Below the pieces are notes generated by a model. It did not search any database and was not told the origin of the DNA. It saw only the letters and a list, made by a program, of their open reading frames with translations. This document shows, one piece after another, positions 16,610 through 45,740 of a DNA stretch of 64,000 nucleotides. Numbering within the stretch: position 1 is the first letter of the stretch; every line of letters begins with the position of its first letter. This DNA is from Chlamydiota bacterium. Lineage in GTDB: Bacteria > Auribacterota > JACPWU01. Location: assembly GCA_016178055.1 (NCBI GenBank), contig JACOUC010000034.1, positions 20,621-84,620 of the forward strand, written 5' to 3'. The translations under genes and the position numbers were made by a program.

Positions 16610-16880
16610 ATTACACCTCAACCTCGGTATTAAATTAGCAAGGACTATACCATATTGCAAATTAAAACAACAATATGTCATATTATACTTATAATAAATG
16701 AGTTAGAATAAATCTTTCTCAATTAAATTACTCACGTTAAATTTAGCAACTCATCGTTCTGTTCTATATTAACGGAATATTGCTCTAAATTGAATGATAA
16801 AATTTGAACCTTATCTTACGCCGTATTTTAAGCTCAAAATTAAAAATGAAAGAGTGTAACATTGAGATGAAGAGGTCATT

Positions 16881-32593: not shown

Positions 32594-32640
32594 TGAATTT
32601 TGAACCCTTAAACTTTGAACTTTGAACTTTAAACTGTCTT
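32590..32640. repeat. Family C repeat (AACTTTGAACTTTAAACTG words); supplies TAA stop of gltX
   Basis: aactttgaactttgaactttaaactg; related copies 42592-42700 and 59680-59700/59840-59868. Confidence 0.6.
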
Positions 32641-34820: not shown

Positions 34821-34856
34821 TAAAAAACAGCCTTCCATCATGAGAGGCTGTTTTTT
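34821..34856. terminator. bidirectional rho-independent terminator
   Basis: aaaaaacagcctt ccatcatgag aggctgtttttt, A-run and T-run on both sides, between convergent genes. Confidence 0.7.
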
Positions 34857-36690
34857 ATGCCCATTTCTCTGCTTTTATTTTTTGAATCATTTCGTGTGCA
34901 AACTCATTCTTAGGGTCTAAAAGAAGCACCCTCTTTAAAATAAGCATCCCTTTTTCTATTTGCCCTGTTCTCAGGACCACAGAGGCAAGACTACACAAAC
35001 GGCTCGGGTCATAGGGATTCATCCTGACCTGAAGCAACAAATGTTGACCCGCCTTCTCTAAATCCCCCATGCGACTATAAATCGTTCCCAAATTACCATG
35101 GACTGAAGCAAAAAACGGGGCAAATTCTATGACCTTCTCATAAGTTTTTGCTGCTTCTTCATTTCTCTCCATCAAACCATATAAAAAGGCCATCCTGTAT
35201 CTCGCCTCAATATGTTGCTGGTTTATTTGAAGCGCTTTTTGATAAAAAGAAAGCGCCTTCTCGTAAAAACCCTGTTTTCTTGCCTGAACACCCTTTTCAA
35301 AATAAACCTCCGAAAGAAAAGGGCGAAAGAATCCTTGGTAAAAAACAGTCACGGAAACGATCACACCTGAAAAACAGATAATTCTTTGAACAAATGAATT
35401 TTTTCTGAAGGACTTCTTTTCCCCTTTGTCTAGGAAACAAAGCCCATAACTGGTCCCTAAAAAAGACCAAAAGACAAACTTGGACGATAAGTATCGCAAA
35501 TTGACATCAAATAAATTCTCAAAATAAAGAAGCAGGGCTCCTAAAAGAAGAGAAAAAAGAATATTTTTTGAAAAGGGATCTAGAGACTTTGCCCTTTCAA
35601 ATGCTTTAATGCCAAGCAAAAGCAAGAAAAGGATAAAAACCAATACCCCGATAATCCCCGTCTCAGCAAAAAGTTCCAATATTTCCGAATGAGCATGATC
35701 TGTATTATCGACACTTTCTGAATTGATAAAATATTCTGGAATCCGGTATGGGGGATAAAAGACAAAATATTGACCCGGTCCACATCCCAACAAGGGATGA
35801 TCTTGAATGAGTTGAAGAGTCCCCTTCCAAATAAAGGGGCGAACATCTTGAACAATTTGTGTCACTAAAGATTCTTTAACCCAGGGAATTTGGAAAATAA
35901 AAATGACAAAAGCTCCGTAGACCCCAAGAGTCCCTAACCGCAATCGACGATTTTTAAAATGAATAAGAATTAAAAAAGGGATACTCAGCCCCAAACTCAA
36001 AACCATCGCCCAGGAGCGGATAAAAACGGCATTGATCATAAAGAGGATGAGATCAATAAGAGAGATAAATTGCAGCGCTTTCCCCCCCCTTAATTTAAGG
36101 GGGGCAAGGGGGTTTATTTCATTTCTTAACCCAAGAAGCAACACAGGCCAAAGTGCAATAAGATAAGCCCCGTAAAAATTTGGATTTCCAAAGAAGGATG
36201 TTGGCTTATTCCCCAACCAAGGACTTTGATGAAAGAGAATTTGAAATATTCCCATTCCAAGAATAAAGAGAAGAGCAAGGTTATTGATCTTGATAAAAAA
36301 ATGTGCAAAACCCTTTTCAGCTAGCCTGGCATAGGCATAAAAAAAGAATATCAGAAGGCCCAATTCTGAAAGATACGGAATAGCTGAAAGATGCGATGAA
36401 CTCATCAAAAGACTCACAGCATTCACCACCCAAAACAGAAGAAGAAGACCATCCATCCATCGATTTCTAATCTTAAAGATTCGAACCTCATCAAAATTTA
36501 AAAAAATAATTGAAAGAAGAACACACCCCCCTAGTCCAAAGACTAAGTTTTTAATCTGAGTCGGATAATAGGTGATGGAACTGTAAGCGAGGGGAATAGA
36601 AAGAACGAGGAATACTAAACAAACGATTGGGAGTCTATCAAAAAAATATTTTGGGCGATTCGTAGAGGTAGAAATTATTTTCTTAACCAA
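34855..36690 (-). CDS. O-antigen ligase/polymerase-like polytopic membrane protein with C-terminal TPR repeats
   Basis: 611 aa; about 10 TM N-terminal region, TPR repeats in last about 150 aa. Confidence 0.5.
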   Translation of the reverse strand: MVKKIISTSTNRPKYFFDRLPIVCLVFLVLSIPLAYSSITYYPTQIKNLVFGLGGCVLLSIIFLNFDEVRIFKIRNRWMDGLLLLFWVVNAVSLLMSSSHLSAIPYLSELGLLIFFFYAYARLAEKGFAHFFIKINNLALLFILGMGIFQILFHQSPWLGNKPTSFFGNPNFYGAYLIALWPVLLLGLRNEINPLAPLKLRGGKALQFISLIDLILFMINAVFIRSWAMVLSLGLSIPFLILIHFKNRRLRLGTLGVYGAFVIFIFQIPWVKESLVTQIVQDVRPFIWKGTLQLIQDHPLLGCGPGQYFVFYPPYRIPEYFINSESVDNTDHAHSEILELFAETGIIGVLVFILFLLLLGIKAFERAKSLDPFSKNILFSLLLGALLLYFENLFDVNLRYLSSKFVFWSFLGTSYGLCFLDKGEKKSFRKNSFVQRIICFSGVIVSVTVFYQGFFRPFLSEVYFEKGVQARKQGFYEKALSFYQKALQINQQHIEARYRMAFLYGLMERNEEAAKTYEKVIEFAPFFASVHGNLGTIYSRMGDLEKAGQHLLLQVRMNPYDPSRLCSLASVVLRTGQIEKGMLILKRVLLLDPKNEFAHEMIQKIKAEKWA

Positions 36691-37124
36691 TATGCCAACT
36701 CCGTCGTCGAATAAACTTTTACATCAGTCTGATTTTTCAAACCTTTATCATTCGACCATACAGAAATTTTAAGAAAGAGGGCAAGAGCCAAGTAGGGTGC
36801 ATCTTCGTCGTGAGGAGCCAAGACCAATGCTTTTGAAAAATATGACTGATAAGATTGATAAGGAACTGTTTTAATATTCTGTGTTAACAAAATTAACAAA
36901 TGATCTATTTCTTTTATCGTTAAACCAATTCTCCTTCTCAATGAAGCATCTTCTCTTAAGTGTTTTGATACTTCAAAAATTAAATACTCTGGAGCAAAAA
37001 GACTCAAGCGCGCATCCAATAAAAGCTCTCTCGTAAAAGCTTCCTTTTTAAAACACGCCAGAAGAATATTAGCATCAATAACTAATTCCAATCTAATCTT
37101 CCTTATGATGTTTCTTGAAAACAC
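36675..37124 (-). CDS. PIN-domain protein (VapC-like putative toxin)
   Basis: 149 aa; LVIDANILLACF N-terminal PIN signature with acidic residues. Confidence 0.55.
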   Translation of the reverse strand: MFSRNIIRKIRLELVIDANILLACFKKEAFTRELLLDARLSLFAPEYLIFEVSKHLREDASLRRRIGLTIKEIDHLLILLTQNIKTVPYQSYQSYFSKALVLAPHDEDAPYLALALFLKISVWSNDKGLKNQTDVKVYSTTELAYWLRK

Positions 37125-37320
37125 GTTTCCTTATCTGAACACTGTTCCTCTCTATCTCCAACGTACCGAGAGAACTTTTTGAAAGAAGTTCTTTCATTTT
37201 TTCCAAGATACGGGTCTTTTCCCAAATGGCAACTCGTGCGACCTCTGACCAGTTAATCTCTTTAAAATGACTCATACGCTGTTTTAATTCTTTTGGAATG
37301 GCTAACGTCATGTTTGGCAT
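37093..37320 (-). CDS. putative antitoxin partner of PIN protein
   Basis: 75 aa, overlaps PIN gene start by 32 bp; MTLAIPKELKQRM..WSEVARVAI. Confidence 0.4.
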   Translation of the reverse strand: MPNMTLAIPKELKQRMSHFKEINWSEVARVAIWEKTRILEKMKELLSKSSLGTLEIERNSVQIRKRVFKKHHKED

Positions 37321-37532
37321 AAATTAGGCTCTCCTTACCAGACAAATATGAGTGTAATATGTGATTACACATATTACAAGGGAATACGGACGGAAACATA
37401 GAAACATAGTAATCTGTCTCTTTTATGGGAAAGGAAGAGCAATGTCATTCATGATTTTTGTAATAAAAAAAAAGTGCCTTGACGTAACGTCGGGGCACTC
37501 TTTTAAAAACTTTCTTCCTACAAAAAAGAAAA

Positions 37533-38066
37533 TTAAGCTGTAGGTCCTGACGGATTCGTACTGGTAGAGTCTGCGTGTCCATCAACGAAAACTACGTTCG
37601 CCGGACGTGGAGCATCATGAGGACCAACAACAGTAACACCAGCAGCATTAGTAAATTCCTGGTCAATAGCAACAGGTGAATCTGAGGCAGAATTCTCATT
37701 CAAGGTATTGTCATACTGATATTGGATACTCGCTGCAATAAAGGCACTCGCTGCAATTGTTGTTCCGGTAGAAGGGCATTGAAAAACATTTACGTCTGTC
37801 ATGTATAAAGATGTCCTTAGAAGATCTAAAGAGCTCTTCCCTTGACCAGCAATCCCTGTCGTAGGAAATAACTCTCTATAATCAATCGAGTAGGTATGAA
37901 TTGATGTAATAATCTGCTTTAAATTATTCAAGCACTTGGTCTGACTTGCACGGCGACGGGCTTTGGCTAGGGCTGGGAGGAGCATGCTGGCCAAGATCGC
38001 AATGATGGCGATAACGACGAGGAGCTCAATTAATGTAAATCCTTTTTTACTTTTCCTAATCTTCAT
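37533..38066 (-). CDS. prepilin-type N-terminal cleavage/methylation domain protein with H-X9-DG (DUF1559) C-terminus, paralog 1
   Basis: [63 protein letters not shown]. Confidence 0.8.
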
Positions 38067-38369
38067 AACTTTTTCTCCTTTTTGTTCAAAATTGATTTAG
38101 TCCTTTAACCTACCCATCTAACAGCAATGCCTAAGTCAATTAGCAATTCCTATATAGTAGCAATTCCTAAGCCAAAATAATATTTAAAAAAAATATTTTA
38201 TAATTATTTTTAAGTACCTTATTTACAATTAATTATAGAAAATAAATTTTAATGTGTTTTAAAAACATTTTATTTTAAGAATTTAAGGAATGTGTGGTTT
38301 TCGCTCAAAAAGAGCTTAAAAAACGCGTTTTAGATTTTTTATTTATGAAAAAGTAAGAGCGGGAATATT

Positions 38370-38942
38370 CTATTCGCTTGTATTGGTAGGATCTTTAGAA
38401 GTTCCACTGGCATGACCATCAACGTAAACCACATTAATGGACAAGGGATCATCATGATTGCCCTTGCTCATCATTCCACCTAAATCAAGAGCCCCATCAT
38501 CATTGGCTACAGCTGAATCACTCGAACTAAATTCCGATAAAGTTCTATCATATTCATAATCAACTCCTTCAAAAGTACTCACATTCTCTTTCGCATCTCC
38601 AGCTGGGCATTTCATAACATTACTGTATTGAGGAAAATATTGTAATGTTCGAAGCAAATTCAAAGATTTTTTCCCATTGTAGGAAAGAGGGTTAATTGGG
38701 GCCGGTTGATCAATCTCTCCAGTCGTTGGAAATTTTTCACGATAATCCATGGAATACGTATGAATAGCCATGATGATCTGTCGAAGATTACTTAAACATT
38801 TTGTTTGGCTGGAACGGCGACGGGCCTTAGCTAAAGCTGGAAGTAGCATACCAGCAAGAATTGCAATAACTGCCATGACCACAAGGAGTTCAATAAGAGT
38901 GAAACCTCGATTGAGTCGCTTACCATTAATCTGCCTTAACAT
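38370..38942 (-). CDS. prepilin-type/DUF1559 protein, paralog 2
   Basis: [64 protein letters not shown]. Confidence 0.8.
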
Positions 38943-38951
38943 ATTATGCTT

Positions 38952-39521
38952 CTATTCGCCTGTGTTTCCAGGATCGGTGGTAACGCTGTCCTCATGTCCA
39001 TCTACGTAGACAACATTAAAGGCTTTGGGGGCATCGTGATTCCCTGGGTGAGTATCATCCGCCCCCTTTGGATCGTCATCGTTCGCAACAGCTGAATCAC
39101 TCGAGCTAAATTCAGATAACAGATTGTCATATTGATAATCAACTCCCCTGTAGTCACTATCATCGGTAGCATTACCCGAAGGACACCTAAGGACGGGCGA
39201 GCCATGAAAAGGGCCTGTTGGTGAACCTGCCGCAGGGATAGGCAAATACCCAGACCGTGCAAGCAAGCATAAAGATGCCTTACCTCCATGATTATCATCT
39301 TTTGTCCCTCCAGTGTTTGGAAAAAGCTCTCGATAATCCATTGAATAGGTATGAATGGCCATGATGATTTGACGGAGGTTGTTCAGGCATTTAACCTGAT
39401 TTGCCCGGCGGCGGGCTTTGGCAAGGGACGGCAAGAGCATGCTGGCCAAAATGGCAATAATGGCTATGACCACCAATAGTTCAACCAGCGTAAACCCTCG
39501 TTTTTTGGAATATTTATACAT
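38952..39521 (-). CDS. prepilin-type/DUF1559 protein, paralog 3
   Basis: [64 protein letters not shown]. Confidence 0.8.
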
Positions 39522-39599
39522 AAAACATCCCCCTTATTAAATCAGGAGTCTTATCAGACTCATAAACTAGCATTTTATATGCCAAAGATTAAAGGAATA

Positions 39600-39785
39600 A
39601 CTCCCCACACCCCTCTTTGAAAGAAAGAGGGGGTATTGAATAACTCCCCGGACTGTAACTCCCCTAACCCCTCTTAAATTAAGAGGGGAATATAAAACTC
39701 CCCTGGTTACTGTTCGATATCCTTAAATAAAGAGCGATTTACTCTCCCCTTAGTTTAAGGGGAGTTGGAGGGGTTACTTTTATCA
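39600..39785. repeat. three tandem GC-stem hairpin units (Family G: AACTCCCC..CCCCTCTT-loop-AAGAGGGG) upstream of pilin array
   Basis: ccctctttgaaagaaagaggg; cccctcttaaattaagagggg; ctccccttagtttaaggggag; each preceded by aactcccc. Confidence 0.6.
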
Positions 39786-39794
39786 TTAAAAAAC

Positions 39795-40905
39795 TCAATT
39801 TGGTCCTTTTTTCAAATACGCTTGAATAAATAAATCAATTTCTCCATCCATGACCGCATTTCCATTTGAAGTTTCGACCCCTGTCCGATGGTCTTTGACT
39901 AAGGTATAGGGCTGAAACACATAAGAACGAATTTGGCTTCCCCAGGCGATATCGGCTTTTTGACCATAAACTTTGGCCATTTTTTCTTCTTGTTCTTTTT
40001 GCTTCAGAGCATAAACTCGGGCCCTTAAAATTTTAAAGGCTGTCGCTTTATTTTTATGTTGAGAGCGTTCATTTTGGCAACTCACGACAATCCCTGTCGG
40101 AAGATGGGTGATTCTCACCGCTGAATCTGTCTTGTTCACATGTTGTCCCCCAGCCCCACTCGCACGAAAGGTGTCAATTTTGAGATCTTTTTCATCTAAA
40201 TCGACTGGAATGTCGTCAGTAATTTCAGGAATTACATCGATAGAAGCAAACGAGGTATGACGGCGTTTATTAGAATCAAAGGGCGAAATCCGGACTAAGC
40301 GATGAATGCCTTTTTCCGCCTTTAAATATCCATAGGCGTAATCGCCCTCAACAATTAAAGTCACATTCTTAACCCCTACCTCCTCTCCAGGCAAAATTTC
40401 TGTAATTTCATCTTTAAAACCGTGACGTTCAATCCAGCGCCGATACATTCTTAAAAGCATTTCAGCCCAATCGCAAGATTCGGTTCCGCCCGCACCCGAA
40501 TGAACGGTCAAAATGGCTGGATTACGATCATAAGGGCCACCTAAAATATTACGAAGCTCAAGATCAGAAAGATTTTTTTCAACTAAAATAAGACTTTTCT
40601 CAAGTTCTTCTCTTAATTCATGAGCCTCTGGAGAGTCGTCCCCCTTCACCAATTCTAAAATGGCCTGGAGATCATGTACTTCCTTCTCTAAACGACCTAC
40701 GGGCTCAAGCTTTGATTTAAGGAGTTTTAAATCCTCAATAATTTTCTTTGATTTTTCACCCTGATCCCAAAAATCCTCCAGAGCCATTTCCCCTTCAAGG
40801 GATTTTAGACGCACTATTTTATGATCGTAGTCAAAGATACCTCCTGAGCTCCCCCAAATTCTTGACCACCTTTTCTACTCTGTCTGCAATCTCACTTGGC
40901 ATCAT
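39795..40905 (-). CDS. prfB: peptide chain release factor 2 with programmed +1 ribosomal frameshift (frame 0: 40834..40905; +1 frame: 39795..40832)
   Basis: Frame-0 ORF MMPSEIADRVEKVVKNLGELRRYL then TGA within AGG AGG TAT CTT TGA CTA (canonical SD-like + CUU UGA C shift site at 40828-40848); downstream frame SGAGGQHVNKTDSAVR, GGQ motif. Confidence 0.85.
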
Positions 40906-42592: not shown

Positions 42593-42700
42593 AGTTTAAG
42601 GTTTAAGGTTCAAAGAAAAAAAACTAAAAAACAGCCCACGGCTAAGAGTTTAGAGTTTTCAACTTTAAACTTTTAACTTTAAACTGTTTTTACGCTCCAC
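42592..42700. repeat. Family C palindromic repeat (AAGTTTAAGGTTTAAGG .. AACTTTAAACTTTTAACTTTAAACTG)
   Basis: Inverted word arrays flanking short unique centre; fills lnt-secA intergenic gap. Confidence 0.6.
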
Positions 42701-45700
42701 AACATTTCTTGTATTTTTTACCGCTTCCACAAGGGCAAAGATCATTGCGCCCCACCTTTGGGAGATCCCGTCGAATGGGGGCTGATGAGCGATTCACCAG
42801 AGGCATTCCTTCAGATGAGGGTTGATCTTGAGAAGATCCTCCATTGGCTCCTTGAGAAACTGGCGCAGATTGAAATTGCTGAGTCTCCTGATGAATCAAC
42901 TTTGTTGGAACACGCTTCATAACGCTTTCAAAGTATTGAGGACTCGCGGAAACGCGGAAAATTTCCCTTGTAATTTCAGCCTTCATATCATACATCATTT
43001 CAGAAAACATATTGAAGCCCTCAGCACGATATTCAACCAGGGGATCTTTCTGGCCGTAAGCCCTTAAGTACACCCCCTCTCTCAAAGAATCCATATTATA
43101 AAGATGCTCCCGCCACAGACGGTCAATCACCTTGAGAAGGACGACCTGTTCGAGACGGCGCATTCTTTCTTCTTCAATTTTCTCTTTAAATTCATAAAGA
43201 GACTTGAATTCATCAATGAGAGTCTGAGTTACTTCTTCCTTTGTTTTCTCCTCAAACTCGGAAATACGATCTGAAAGGTGAAGAGGAAAATTAGAATCCA
43301 CCCATTTCAGAAGTCCAGCCAAATCAATTTCGTCAGTCTTCCCGGAAAAAATTTCATCGACCTTGATGGACAAAACCTCTTCAATAATATTGAGGACATC
43401 TTCTTTTAGATTTTCGGACTGAAGAACCCGATTCCTAAAATCGTAAATGACCTGACGCTGTTTATTCATCACATCATCAAATTCAAGGGTATGCTTACGA
43501 ACTCCAAAATTTCTCTGTTCCACCCTTTTTTGAGCCGTCTCAATCGATCGGTTCAAAAGAGGATGAGTGAGGTCTTGTCCCTCTTCAATCCCCATTTTAT
43601 CCATGACCCGCGCAATCCGGTCCGAACCAAAGAGACGCATCAAATCGTCTTCCAAAGAAATATAGAATCGGGATGAACCGGGGTCTCCCTGACGGGCGCT
43701 GCGGCCCCTTAGCTGGCGGTCAATTCGGCGAGATTCATGCCGCTCGGATCCAATCACGTGAAGGCCGCAAGGAACTTTTTTATAGCAATCCAATTCATTG
43801 ATGAAAGGGCAAACCTCTCTTCCGTCACGAGCGGCAATTAAAGCACAATTTGAATGTTTGACCACCCCCGGCCCCAGTTTAATATCCGTTCCTCGTCCAG
43901 CCATGTTAGTCGCAATGGTCACAGCTCCCGGCTGTCCCGCCCTTGAAACAATTTCAGCCTCTTGCTGGTGATATCGGGCATTTAAAACCGAGTGGGGAAT
44001 GCTGCGTCTTTTGAGGAGTCTGCTTAAAACTTCAGAGGTTTCAACAGAAACCGTTCCAACCAAGACGGGGCGCTTGGCTTGATAGCATTCAGTAATTTCA
44101 TCAATGATGGCATTGAACTTTTCCCGACGGGTTTTATAAATCACATCGTTATGATCGATTCTGCGAATTTTGTCATTGGTTGGAATCACCATGACCGGCA
44201 ATTTATAAATCTGAAAAAATTCATTGGCCTCAGTCTCAGCGGTTCCTGTCATTCCAGCGAGCTTTTTATACATTCTAAAATAATTTTGAATCGTGATCGT
44301 TGCAAAGGTCTGTGTTTCCCGTTCAATACTCACCCCTTCCTTTGCCTCCAGGGCCTGATGGAGTCCATCGCTGTAACGCCGACCTGGCATTAAACGACCT
44401 GTAAACTCATCCACAATAATGACTTTATTGTCTTGAATGACATAATCAACATCCTTTTCAAAAAGAGAATAAGCCTTAAGCAGTTGACCCAAATTATGGA
44501 TTTTTTCACTTTTTTCACCATACTCAACCTGAAGCTTCTCCTTCTTTCTCTCTTTTTCTTCAGAAGTCAAAGTCTCATCAGCATCAATGTCTTGTTGGTC
44601 ATTCACTAAATCAGGCAAAACAAATTCATCAGCATCATGAGGACTAATGAGTTTTCGACCTTGATCCGTTAAATCGACATCGTGACCCTTTTCATCAATC
44701 GTAAAATATAATTCTTCCAATACTTTAAAGCGCTCTTCCTTGCGAAGATCACTCATCATCTGAAGTTCTGTTTTGTCGATCATTCGCCTTACTTCCGGAT
44801 CTTCCATCATTTTAAGAAGTTGACGATGCTCAGGAATTCCCTTCAGAACCTGAAAAAGCTTAATGGCCGCGGCATCTTCTTCTTCATCGGTGGCCCCGTC
44901 TTTATCCAAAATATCGCGAGCTTCCTTTAAGAGACGATTGCAAAGCAAACTTTGTTTTTGAAAAAGATTTTGAACAAGGGGTTTAACCTGGTCATAGCGG
45001 TGAGTGGAGACTGATGCGGGACCTGAAATAATCAAAGGAGTTCGGGCTTCGTCCACCAAAATGCTATCGACTTCATCCACAATCGCAAAAAAATGGCCGC
45101 GTTGAACCTGCTCTTCCTGGCGGCTCGCCATGCTGTTATCCCTCAAATAATCAAAGCCAAATTCGCTATTGGTGCCATAAACAATGTCACAGGCATAAAC
45201 CTTTCGACGAGCCTCAAAATCCATATCATTCTGAAGATAGGAAACCGTCAGCCCTAAAAATTCATAAATGGGCCGCATCCACTCACAGTCGCGGCGAGCC
45301 AAATAATCATTTACCGTCACCAGATGAACAGGATTGACTAACGCATTTAAATAAACGGGAAGCGTAGCCACCAGAGTTTTTCCTTCCCCTGTTGCCATTT
45401 CCGCAATTTTTCCCTGGTGAAGGACCTTCCCTCCTACAAGCTGAACATCAAAAGGAATCATTTCCCATTTGAGCTGATGACCCACAACATCCCAACTTTT
45501 CCCAACATGGCGTCGACACACGTTTTTAACAACGGCAAAAGCTTCAGTAGAAAGATCGTCCAAGGATTCCCCCCCAGACAATCTCTTTCTAAACTCAATC
45601 GTCTTGGCTTTAATCTCTTCATCTGTGAGTTTTTGATATTCTTTTTCTTTTTCATTAACGAGAAGAGCCCACTTGCAAAGTCGAGCTACCTCACGGTCAT

Positions 45701-45740
45701 TCTTTGTGCCGATGGTCTTGCCGAGAATCCACTGAAGCAT
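42690..45740 (-). CDS. secA: preprotein translocase ATPase SecA
   Basis: 1016 aa; MLQWILGK.., DEAD-like motor, C-terminal zinc finger [14 protein letters not shown]. Confidence 0.95.

Follow-up and report, generated by a model that had tools for sequence, protein, structure and literature searches.

The 64,000-nucleotide stretch of contig JACOUC010000034.1 analysed here (the window) comes from a metagenome-assembled genome (MAG) that carries the label Chlamydiota at NCBI. It contains a locus whose genes all lie on the minus strand, namely prfB, a spacer with G+C-rich hairpins, three pilin-like genes (A, B and C), a VapB/PIN toxin-antitoxin cassette and a gene for a membrane protein with Wzy_C and TPR domains. 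The locus is flanked by the housekeeping genes glmS, der, pgsA, gltX, lnt and secA. An earlier sequence-only reading of this DNA had noticed the hairpins and proposed that they may act as a regulatory or attenuator array for the pilin-like operon. The present analysis supports another view, in which the array likely consists of copies of a dispersed palindromic repeat family and is not a dedicated regulator of the pilins. The array lies in the 273-nt spacer between prfB and pilin A, where the repeat cluster begins 17 nt past the prfB stop codon. Together with a further copy in the Wzy_C gene, its parts are as follows, in positions of the window.

39655..39777, minus strand: complete two-hairpin composite of 123 nt (inverted repeat; the two halves match by nhmmer at E 2.3e-8 and 1.2e-6; collinear alignment)
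39744..39764, minus strand: hairpin A, CTCCCCTTAAACTAAGGGGAG, with a perfect 9-bp stem, the third hairpin of the earlier reading
39668..39688, minus strand: hairpin B, CCCCTCTTAATTTAAGAGGGG, with a perfect 10-bp stem, the second hairpin of the earlier reading
39598..39650, minus strand: truncated second copy (weak nhmmer match, E 0.031; alignment)
36076..36116, minus strand: half element, composed of arm TAAACCCCC and hairpin CCCCCCTTAAATTAAGGGGGG, in the Wzy_C coding sequence (nhmmer E 9.6e-9)

The three perfect hairpins that had been reported upstream of the pilins are indeed present, at 39610-39632, 39668-39688 and 39744-39764. The first of them, termed hairpin B′, has a perfect 9-bp stem and belongs to the truncated copy, which is made up of a solo arm GGGGAGTTA (39649..39641), hairpin B′ itself (39632..39610) and a terminal arm GGGGAGTTA (39606..39598). 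Read on the minus strand from 39777 to 39655, the composite has the layout GTAACCCCTCC - aa - hairpin A - 55-nt spacer - hairpin B - tta - GGGGAGTTAC, and its spacer contains an extra arm remnant, GTAACCAGGGGAGTT. Each hairpin had also been said to be introduced by the word AACTCCCC, of which four plus-strand copies and one reverse complement are found inside 170 nt; two of the three hairpins are directly preceded by it, but the third is not. Read on the minus (coding) strand, the words correspond to the terminal arms GGGGAGTTA(C), which follow the hairpins. Hairpins of the C4..G4 type with a stem of at least 6 bp give 13 overlapping matches at 7 loci of the window, compared with 0.32 per shuffle, and the array region folds more stably than shuffled sequences on both strands (z about -4).

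An intrinsic terminator reading of the array hairpins is ruled out, since no U-tract or T-run follows any of the three perfect hairpins on either strand; the sole match of a terminator scan is a weak alternative pairing at 39704..39684. Rfam models matched only tRNA in the window at the gathering score, gave sub-threshold miRNA-like noise in the region at E<=5, and again matched only tRNA in 15 loci with good copies of the element. A Logan contig of the window locus stops within the array's outer arm.

The hairpin that had been recognised inside the O-antigen-ligase-like coding sequence is real, but it lies at 36084-36104, within an element spanning 36076-36116, and not at 36055-36085. It is read in frame as ..INPLAPLKLRGG.. 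and coincides with an 11-residue insertion, INPLAPLKLRG, in the Wzy_C/TPR protein, which three aligned Wzy_C homologues at 41-44% identity do not have. The same coding sequence also holds an imperfect hairpin, CCCCTTCCAAATAAAGGGG, with a 6-bp stem at 35821-35839, to which the element profile described below gives no match and which may be either a chance occurrence or a decayed copy.

The wider distribution of the element was addressed by a scan of 185,579 genomes, one per species, with a degenerate hairpin core, YCCYCTTAAAYTAAGRGGR, and with the flanks left outside the pattern. At least 120 matching loci were obtained and, among the matches listed, most flanks carry arms like those of the window, TAAC[C/T/G]CCCC on the left and GGGG[G/A/C]GTTA on the right. 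The basic unit is a nested palindrome of about 50 nt, TAAC[C/T]CCCC-linker-CCC[C/T]CTTAnnnTAAG[A/G]GGG-linker-GGGG[A/G]GTTA, in which an outer 9-bp stem and linkers of 5-8 nt enclose an inner 9-bp stem that ends in CTTA/TAAG and surrounds a free 3-nt loop. Complete units number 46 (42 distinct) among the matches listed, and their length is held tightly to 48-51 nt. The inner-stem positions that the pattern left free are complementary, as C:G or T:A, in 42/42 and 40/42 elements, which argues that the palindromy is maintained. The ends are TAAC/GTTA in 42/42 aligned elements, where they were required by the selection regular expression; they are independently supported by the flanks of the scan hits, which lie outside the pattern and show the same ends. 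At position 5/59 of the outer stem, a mismatch recurs that pairs TAAC-G-CCCC with GGGG-A-GTTA (7/42), together with its mirror, T/C (5/42), an asymmetry that may point to some strand-specific feature, for example recognition of a single strand.

The host range is broad. Among the matches listed, hosts comprise Nitrospirota, Thermodesulfobacteriota/Deltaproteobacteria (Desulfuromonadaceae, Geobacteraceae, Syntrophaceae and Syntrophorhabdus), many lineages of the candidate phyla radiation (CPR), a Bacillota MAG and the ‘Chlamydiae’ MAG JACPWU01, and many of these genomes hold several matches. The CPR copies have an arm variant, ATCACCCC/GGGGTGAT. In addition to simple units, a composite recurs in which TAACCCCTCC is followed by hairpin A (TCCCCTTAnnnTAAGGGGA), a spacer, hairpin B (CCCTCTTAnnnTAAGAGGG) and GGGGGAGTTA. 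The composite of the window is collinear with those of two loci of the JACPWU01 MAG, which belongs to the Planctomycetes-Verrucomicrobia-Chlamydiae (PVC) group, and with those of a Desulfuromonadaceae MAG and a Thermodesulfovibrionia MAG. When a profile hidden Markov model (HMM), built from the anchored alignment of the 42 foreign elements, was searched against the window at E<=10, it matched four sites only: 36076-36116 (E 9.6e-9), 39656-39691 (E 2.3e-8), 39740-39776 (E 1.2e-6) and 39598-39635 (E 0.031). As a control, 468 kb of unrelated prfB loci (80 loci) gave no match to the same profile.

The sites occupied by the element are as varied as its hosts. In the JACPWU01 MAG, whose PgsA is 66% identical to that of the window, the gltX-pgsA spacer contains a 95-nt composite (L029:6818-6912), while the orthologous 35-nt spacer of the window is empty. 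The same MAG has a composite between two ABC-permease genes (L002:16541-16627) and a degenerate simple unit after carB (L002). Besides intergenic DNA, the element is found in genes. On each strand, just one frame of the palindrome is free of stops, reading ..N[PSA]P.PPL[KN]LRGG.., and 22 of the 169 hairpins in the listed loci are in long stop-free spans, about 20 of them with arms and with this reading. Ten in-frame hosts were tested, and each proved to be a genuine domain protein in which the element lies within a domain, namely a P-type ATPase, MnmA, YchF, RecG, MutL, LeuRS, LigA, FolD, HemC and an O-methyltransferase, the stop-free span of the last extending into an adjacent aconitase. The insert amounts to 16 residues in HemC relative to E. 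coli HemC (1AH5) and to 14 residues in MnmA relative to 9HLV. Since such copies are open in the host frame, it appears likely that they are translated.

Viral contigs carry the element as well. The pattern occurs in 19 contigs of IMG/VR, most of them with full arms, and one of these, an 11-kb contig with 6 copies (L135), is a Mu-like phage that encodes Mu GemA, gp27, terminase, Mu portal and Mu F proteins; such a phage is a possible vehicle for spread between phyla. The densest bacterial array lies in the Desulfuromonadaceae MAG (L023:2700-4223), where 14 hairpins are packed into 1.5 kb between the type I restriction-modification genes hsdS and hsdR and include four tandem units of about 220 bp, each with a full composite. 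The sequence-only reading had itself suggested a check for a mobile mini-repeat, and in view of the matching elements in many phyla, phages and coding sequences this was the right suggestion.

Altogether, these findings suggest a model in which the units would be non-autonomous DNA that spreads with the help of an enzyme acting in trans and encoded elsewhere, and that is carried between lineages partly by phages. They would persist where they are tolerated, that is, after stop codons, between the genes of an operon, or in frame in the surface loops of proteins. At the locus studied here, the half copy would have lengthened a loop of the Wzy_C/TPR gene by 11 in-frame codons, and the array would act only passively, providing stable hairpins in the 3′ untranslated region of the prfB transcript and a spacer before the pilin promoter. 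The broader claim can be put forward only tentatively, although we hold it to be a serious possibility: that the units form an undescribed pan-phylum family of mobile elements, nested palindromes of about 50 nt with TAAC..GTTA ends, which move between phyla, plausibly on phages, and colonise essential genes in frame. [quoted passage not shown]

Several observations weigh against a mobile family. The hairpin core was fixed by the search pattern, so that the independent evidence comes from the arms, the length and the complementarity. Complete elements are found almost exclusively in MAGs, the copies in the window are all partial or composite with no clean 50-nt unit among them, and within the 64 kb of the source genome the element is present at two loci only. 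No transposase was seen among the 10 open reading frames (ORFs) of the densest loci (L135, L023 and L024), whole genomes not being covered by this search; these ORFs encode phage Mu structural proteins, type I restriction-modification proteins and an SLH protein. Apart from a possible TA within TAAC/GTTA, no direct repeat that could be a target-site duplication flanks the 46 elements, and pairs of empty and filled sites at high nucleotide identity were likewise not found. Mobility is therefore deduced from insertions and deletions between orthologues that are 40-66% identical. Finally, the array abuts the -24 element of a predicted sigma-54 promoter, a promoter type that needs an upstream activator site, and co-option of the repeats as an enhancer or insulator is possible.

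Two related attempts deserve mention. A fixed TA target-site duplication was considered; the lengths of in-frame copies (47-53 nt) fit no single rule. Metagenomes were also scanned with PrfB for the prfB-pilin spacer of close relatives; the best match is only 60% identical, and there is consequently no comparison of orthologous spacers.

The relation between the array and the pilins depends on where the pilin genes are transcribed from, and the relevant features are the following.

39569..39584, minus strand: sigma-54-type -24/-12 promoter, TGGCATATAAAATGCT, with exact GG-N10-GC spacing
38952..39521, minus strand: pilin-like gene A, 189 aa (PF07963 E 3e-10; PF07596 28.5 bits, N-terminal only)
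38370..38942, minus strand: pilin-like gene B, 190 aa (PF07963 E 1.2e-9; PF07596 17.7 bits, under the cut-off)
38159..38174, minus strand: second sigma-54-type promoter, TGGCTTAGGAATTGCT, upstream of pilin C (motif match)
37533..38066, minus strand: pilin-like gene C, 177 aa (PF07963 E 2e-10; PF07596 26.0 bits)
37464..37499, minus strand: intrinsic terminator after pilin C, AGTGCCCCGACGTTACGTCAAGGCACT followed by T9 (direct reading; canonical)
34855..36690, minus strand: Wzy_C (O-antigen-ligase-family) and TPR membrane protein gene, 611 aa (PF04932 57.8 bits, with TPR repeats)

The promoter TGGCATATAAAATGCT follows the last repeat arm at a distance of 14 nt and precedes the ATG that starts pilin A by 47 nt. 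In both promoters, the GG at -24 and the GC at -12 are spaced exactly as GG-N10-GC (TGGCAC-N5-TTGCW), and the pattern TGG-N9-TGCT is rare in the window, whose two strands (128 kb) yield just 9 matches, a background of 0.07 per kb per strand. Pilin B starts 10 nt past gene A and the two are probably co-transcribed; an A+T-rich gap of 303 nt separates pilin B from pilin C. From these motifs, the pilins are predicted to have sigma-54-type promoters of their own, one serving A and B (39584..39569) and one serving C (38174..38159).

Comparison with six related genomes (L002, L005, L008, L151, L152 and L153), whose pilins are 45-57% identical to pilin A, supports this arrangement. A sigma-54-type motif stands 46-88 nt before the start codon in 7 of their 8 pilin upstream regions, and overall such a motif precedes 9/10 pilin transcription units. 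Upstream of the pilins of these six genomes, no GC hairpins are present. A hairpin and T9-type terminator also lies 3′ of the pilin genes in L002, L005 and L008. In five of the relatives, a histidine kinase and a regulator with Response_reg, Sigma54_activat and HTH_8 domains are encoded directly upstream of the pilin, and a Wzy_C or Wzy_C/TPR gene is found downstream of the pilin in 7/7 genomes, its domains being divided over three ORFs in L151. The window is a rearranged form of this conserved PVC module of kinase, sigma-54 activator, short pilin(s) and Wzy_C(+TPR) protein, in which the pilin has been triplicated, the VapB/PIN cassette stands before the Wzy_C gene, and the kinase and activator are not found within the 64 kb. 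Indeed, tblastn with the kinase and activator of the relatives found no counterpart in the window, and its six-frame translation contains no RpoN box or GAFTGA motif.

A search for an upstream activator motif shared by nine pilin promoters returned only a weak AAAACGC-type word (L005b, L153b and the pilin C promoter of the window) and nothing hairpin-like. This word, (T)AAAA(A)CGC, or a palindrome, AAAACGCGTTTT, recurs in front of second or downstream pilin genes, 130-250 nt upstream of their sigma-54 promoters, at 38300-38335 (minus strand) in the window, at L005:9770-9810 and upstream of 6001 in L153; as a sequence motif, it is a weak candidate for an activator binding site. A further sigma-54-type motif, TGGTATAGTCCTTGCT, occurs at 16637-16652 (minus strand), 28 nt upstream of an ORF starting MILKKYTLISGVV, whose product looks like a protein with a signal peptide that is not of the prepilin type.

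These data bear directly on the proposed regulatory role. As an attenuator or leader array, the hairpins would fold into competing RNA structures, either in a long leader of the pilin transcript or in transcripts reading through from prfB, and would thereby control whether the pilin genes are entered. The high folding stability of the region on both strands, the alternative pairings permitted by the C4/G4 words and the co-directional prfB and pilin genes are in keeping with such a role, but stability on both strands is a property of any DNA palindrome, and no U-tract follows the hairpins in a genome that uses canonical hairpin and T9 terminators (37499..37464). Moreover, the predicted sigma-54-type promoter is downstream of the hairpins, which places them outside the pilin leader, the related genomes do not share the array, and Rfam gives no match above noise. 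The presence of the element in unrelated contexts across phyla, phages and coding sequences is also the kind of result that the sequence-only reading had named as speaking against its own proposal, and an attenuator now seems very improbable. A role at the DNA level fares slightly better while still being improbable. In this case, the palindromes and GGGGAGTTA words would be enhancer sites, co-opted or independent, for the sigma-54 activator of pilins A and B. Promoters of this type need an activator bound upstream, the predicted promoter lies 14 nt downstream of the array, NtrC-family activators bind dyad-symmetric sites, and five copies of one 8-mer are found inside 170 nt. However, no such palindromes occur upstream of the pilin C promoter (38174..38159) or of the seven promoters of the relatives, the element is equally found in coding regions, phages and unrelated intergenic spacers, its proximal copy is too near the -24 element for a typical looping enhancer, and no activator gene is present within the window.

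A selfish origin does not preclude retention for some benefit, and a passive role of this kind is compatible with the repeat-family reading. The hairpins could make the 3′ end of the prfB mRNA more stable or, as REP clusters may do, shield the sigma-54-dependent pilin operon from transcripts reading through from prfB, as might be expected from very stable hairpins in a cluster that starts 17 nt past the prfB stop codon and from REP-type repeats, which are mostly downstream of coding regions and have been proposed to be RNA elements (PMC3733652). On the other hand, copies in relatives lie between genes of one operon, where termination would be harmful, and copies within coding sequences argue against a general terminator activity, so that retention for such a role is rather unlikely, if worth keeping in view. 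It might finally be objected that short palindromes arise by chance or from composition, or that metagenome assembly created them, the complete elements being almost exclusively from MAGs. This is scarcely credible in the face of 13 matches against 0.3 per shuffled window, of profile E values down to 1e-8 in the window with zero matches in 468 kb of controls, and of the same element being recovered, in frame and inside conserved domains, by independent assemblers, laboratories and samples. The reading that best accommodates the array thus remains that of copies of a dispersed repeat family.

The pilin-like proteins themselves had been described as three tandem prepilin-type paralogs of the DUF1559/H-X9-DG family. 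The first part of this description is well supported. All three share the N-terminus G|FTL[IV]ELLVV, nearly identical between them, and score above the cut-offs of PF07963 (37.7-40.3 bits; cut-off 21.2) and TIGR02532 (35-37 bits; cut-off 16.3); in the 64-kb window, the prepilin motif is found exclusively in these three ORFs. Their pairwise identity is 55-57% (57% for A and B), and they end in ..NVV[YF]VDGH followed by a Ser/Thr/Pro-rich tail. The family assignment holds in part. PF07596 (DUF1559) is passed by two of the three (A 28.5, C 26.0 and B 17.7 bits; cut-off 23.3) and aligns to positions 2-47 of its 268 only, that is, over the N-terminal 45 positions or so. The H-X9-DG model TIGR04294 (cut-off 19) gives 12.1 bits (E 0.14) for pilin C and no match at E<=10 for A and B, and the spacing from His to DG is H-X11-DG, not H-X9-DG. 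By these HMM tests, the three are pilin-like proteins that are related to DUF1559 and are not full members of it.

Alignment with their relatives defines a subfamily of about 160-190 aa with two invariant Cys residues, the motif HDAP-x5-N-[VI]-x-[YF]-[VL]-DGH and, after DGH, a variable tail of 10-18 residues rich in Ser, Thr, Ala and Pro. An AlphaFold (AF2) model of pilin A (pLDDT 85, pTM 0.79) has an N-terminal helix of about 50 residues (12-62) and a four-stranded sheet, and its best PDB matches by Foldseek are type IV pilins, albeit weak ones (PilA4 6xxd, E 0.068, prob 0.96, TM 0.29-0.41). Close homologues of the pilins occur in similar MAGs and in Ca. Theseobacter exili (Auribacterota, PVC group), and the pilin A and Wzy_C proteins are filed under two ‘Chlamydiae/Chlamydiota bacterium’ MAGs. 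That the genome is of the PVC type, as the sequence-only reading had supposed, agrees with the NCBI label of the MAG. No PglL-specific Pfam or NCBIfam model matches the Wzy_C protein of the window. Nevertheless, the order of kinase, activator, pilin and Wzy_C genes, together with the Ser/Thr/Ala/Pro-rich tails, suggests by analogy that the pilins may be O-glycosylated.

The remaining features of the locus are a toxin-antitoxin cassette and prfB.

37093..37320, minus strand: VapB-like ribbon-helix-helix (RHH) antitoxin gene, 75 aa (NF050799 E 1e-5, 26 bits, cut-off of 60 not reached; PF26688 RHH_12 precomputed)
36675..37124, minus strand: PIN-domain toxin gene (profile match to PIN_2, PF10130, 66.3 bits, E 4e-18)
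39795..40814, minus strand: prfB (release factor 2), main frame (TIGR00020 498 bits; PCRF and RF-1 domains)
40830-40845 (about), minus strand: programmed +1 frameshift site of prfB, Shine-Dalgarno-like AGGAGG then TAT CTT TGA C (sequence reading)

The VapBC-like pair seen by the earlier reading was confirmed by the PIN_2 match and the abutting RHH-type gene. The PIN gene can start either at a GTG at 37124 (149 aa) or at a TTG at 37091 (138 aa); the vapB stop at 37093 adjoins the latter, which is the gene arrangement of VapBC type II systems. A perfect 11-bp inverted repeat, TGTAATATGTG-taat-CACATATTACA, lies at 37353-37378, 33 nt upstream of the vapB-like gene, and is a likely candidate for the autoregulatory operator of the pair. 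The cassette stands between the pilin terminator and the Wzy_C gene, and its PIN stop overlaps the Wzy_C start by 16 nt. Because none of the six related genomes has VapB/PIN between pilin and Wzy_C, the cassette looks like an insertion. In most of them the two genes are 60-165 nt apart, and L152 has a 148-aa opposite-strand ORF there with no Pfam match. As for prfB, about 25 N-terminal codons lie upstream of its main frame, before a canonical +1 frameshift site.

Further observations concern the surroundings. The gltX-pgsA spacer of the window (32600-32632) contains a small tandem repeat, (A)ACTTTGA, in three to four copies. In SecA (42690-45740), the DEAD domain spans residues 8-508 against a Pfam model of 290 positions, which indicates a motor domain with roughly 200 additional residues. 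Two other small GC hairpins, GCCCCACTTATGGGGC and GCCCGATAAATCGGGC, lie downstream of the pilin terminator at L002:10560-10620; as two Logan contigs (L003 and L004) end at GCCCCACTTATGGGGC/GCCCGATAAATCGGGC hairpins, a further repeat family is suggested in these genomes.

For the locus itself, the outcome removes a false lead: the pilin operon stands under predicted sigma-54 promoters, and the hairpins would be hitch-hikers. More generally, that near-identical 50-nt palindromes are shared by Nitrospirota, Desulfobacterota, CPR, PVC bacteria and phages means either that so small an element often moves horizontally or that an enzyme recognising it is very widely shared. The in-frame copies inside conserved domains provide a natural experiment in the tolerance of proteins to insertion. 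Copies of the repeat can also mislead gene calling, alignment and MAG assembly, and for this locus the array is a break point in at least one assembly. If the family is truly pan-phylum, the colonisation of genes known from RPEs would extend over a far wider taxonomic scale, with a stereotyped ..NxPxPPL[K/N]LRGG.. peptide added. The module of kinase, sigma-54 activator, pilin and Wzy_C-TPR protein in the PVC group, for its part, yields a testable hypothesis of pilin O-glycosylation.

This module recalls the PilS/PilR-sigma-54-pilA systems with a pilin-adjacent O-oligosaccharyltransferase (TfpO/PilO, PglL) of Pseudomonas, Myxococcus, Geobacter, Acinetobacter and Neisseria. The relatives show the same order of a kinase, a sigma-54 activator, a pilin with a -24/-12 promoter and a strong terminator, and a Wzy_C protein; as with TfpO/PglL, a Wzy_C-domain membrane protein is encoded next to a pilin, here one with Ser/Thr/Ala/Pro-rich tails. 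Unlike in those systems, the pilins are short (160-190 aa) and PVC-specific, with a DUF1559-like start and a ..HDAP..NVxYVDGH motif, while the Wzy_C protein of the window has C-terminal TPR and is not accompanied by adjacent kinase and activator genes. With the DUF1559/H-X9-DG proteins of Planctomycetes and Verrucomicrobia, the pilins share the prepilin N-terminus, the ..KCxNNLKQI.. start and a C-terminal His..N..[FY]xDGH, but they are about 100 residues shorter, match Pfam positions 2-47 only and have H-X11-DG.

Among repeats, the classic case of in-frame copies is that of RPEs, which reportedly were described by Ogata et al. in 2000 as selfish palindromes lying in frame inside protein genes. 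Here, too, a palindromic repeat sits in frame in functional protein genes (Wzy_C, HemC, MnmA and eight more domain proteins) and adds a short peptide where a loop tolerates it. By description, however, RPEs are longer, confined to Rickettsia and bounded by CGTC ends (PMC3733652), whereas the units of this family are about 50 nt, built on G/C runs and spread over several phyla. REP-type stem-loops occur as singles, dimers and clusters, mostly downstream of genes, and some are intragenic and in frame, including in repair genes and in a PVC bacterium (PMC3733652, Di Nocera et al. 2013). The present family resembles them as small G+C-rich stem-loops that occur singly, as dimers or in clusters, mostly 3′ of coding regions and sometimes in frame within genes, and the cluster of the window, with its mixed orientations and solo arms, is also reminiscent of bacterial interspersed mosaic elements. 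It differs from REPs in having no GTAG/CGTC tag, in its TAAC../..GTTA ends and in its two-level nested palindrome of about 50 nt. REP families are also species- or genus-specific, whereas this one is near-identical across several phyla and phages, and REPs are associated with REP-associated tyrosine transposases (RAYTs), while no RAYT or tyrosine transposase was seen in the loci of this family, whole genomes lying outside that search.

Insertion into operons is described for MITEs such as Correia or Chunjie (PMC3184786). MITEs of this kind (Correia/NEMIS, Nezha, Chunjie) share with the present family terminal inverted repeats, a lack of coding capacity, dispersed copies, insertion within operons and strong hairpins; the terminal inverted repeats TAACCCCTCC .. 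GGGGAGTTA bound composites of 85-123 nt, which is in the size range of MITEs. The simple unit is smaller, 48-51 nt as compared with 70-300 bp for described MITEs, and no unambiguous target-site duplication or parent insertion sequence was seen, a TA target duplication being possible. Small mobile G+C-rich palindromes are also known from an A+T-rich organellar genome, that of yeast mitochondria, where GC clusters and byp elements measure about 30-50 nt and byps are skipped by the ribosome. This family likewise places G+C-rich palindromes in intergenic DNA and coding sequences; the difference is that GC clusters and byps are organellar and eukaryotic, whereas the copies in coding sequences described here are open in the host frame. 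The type of element, in short, is already known from REPs, RPEs and MITEs, and what is distinctive is the combination of TAAC/GTTA ends, a two-level palindrome, a tiny unit, a stereotyped composite, and copies in multiple phyla and phages.

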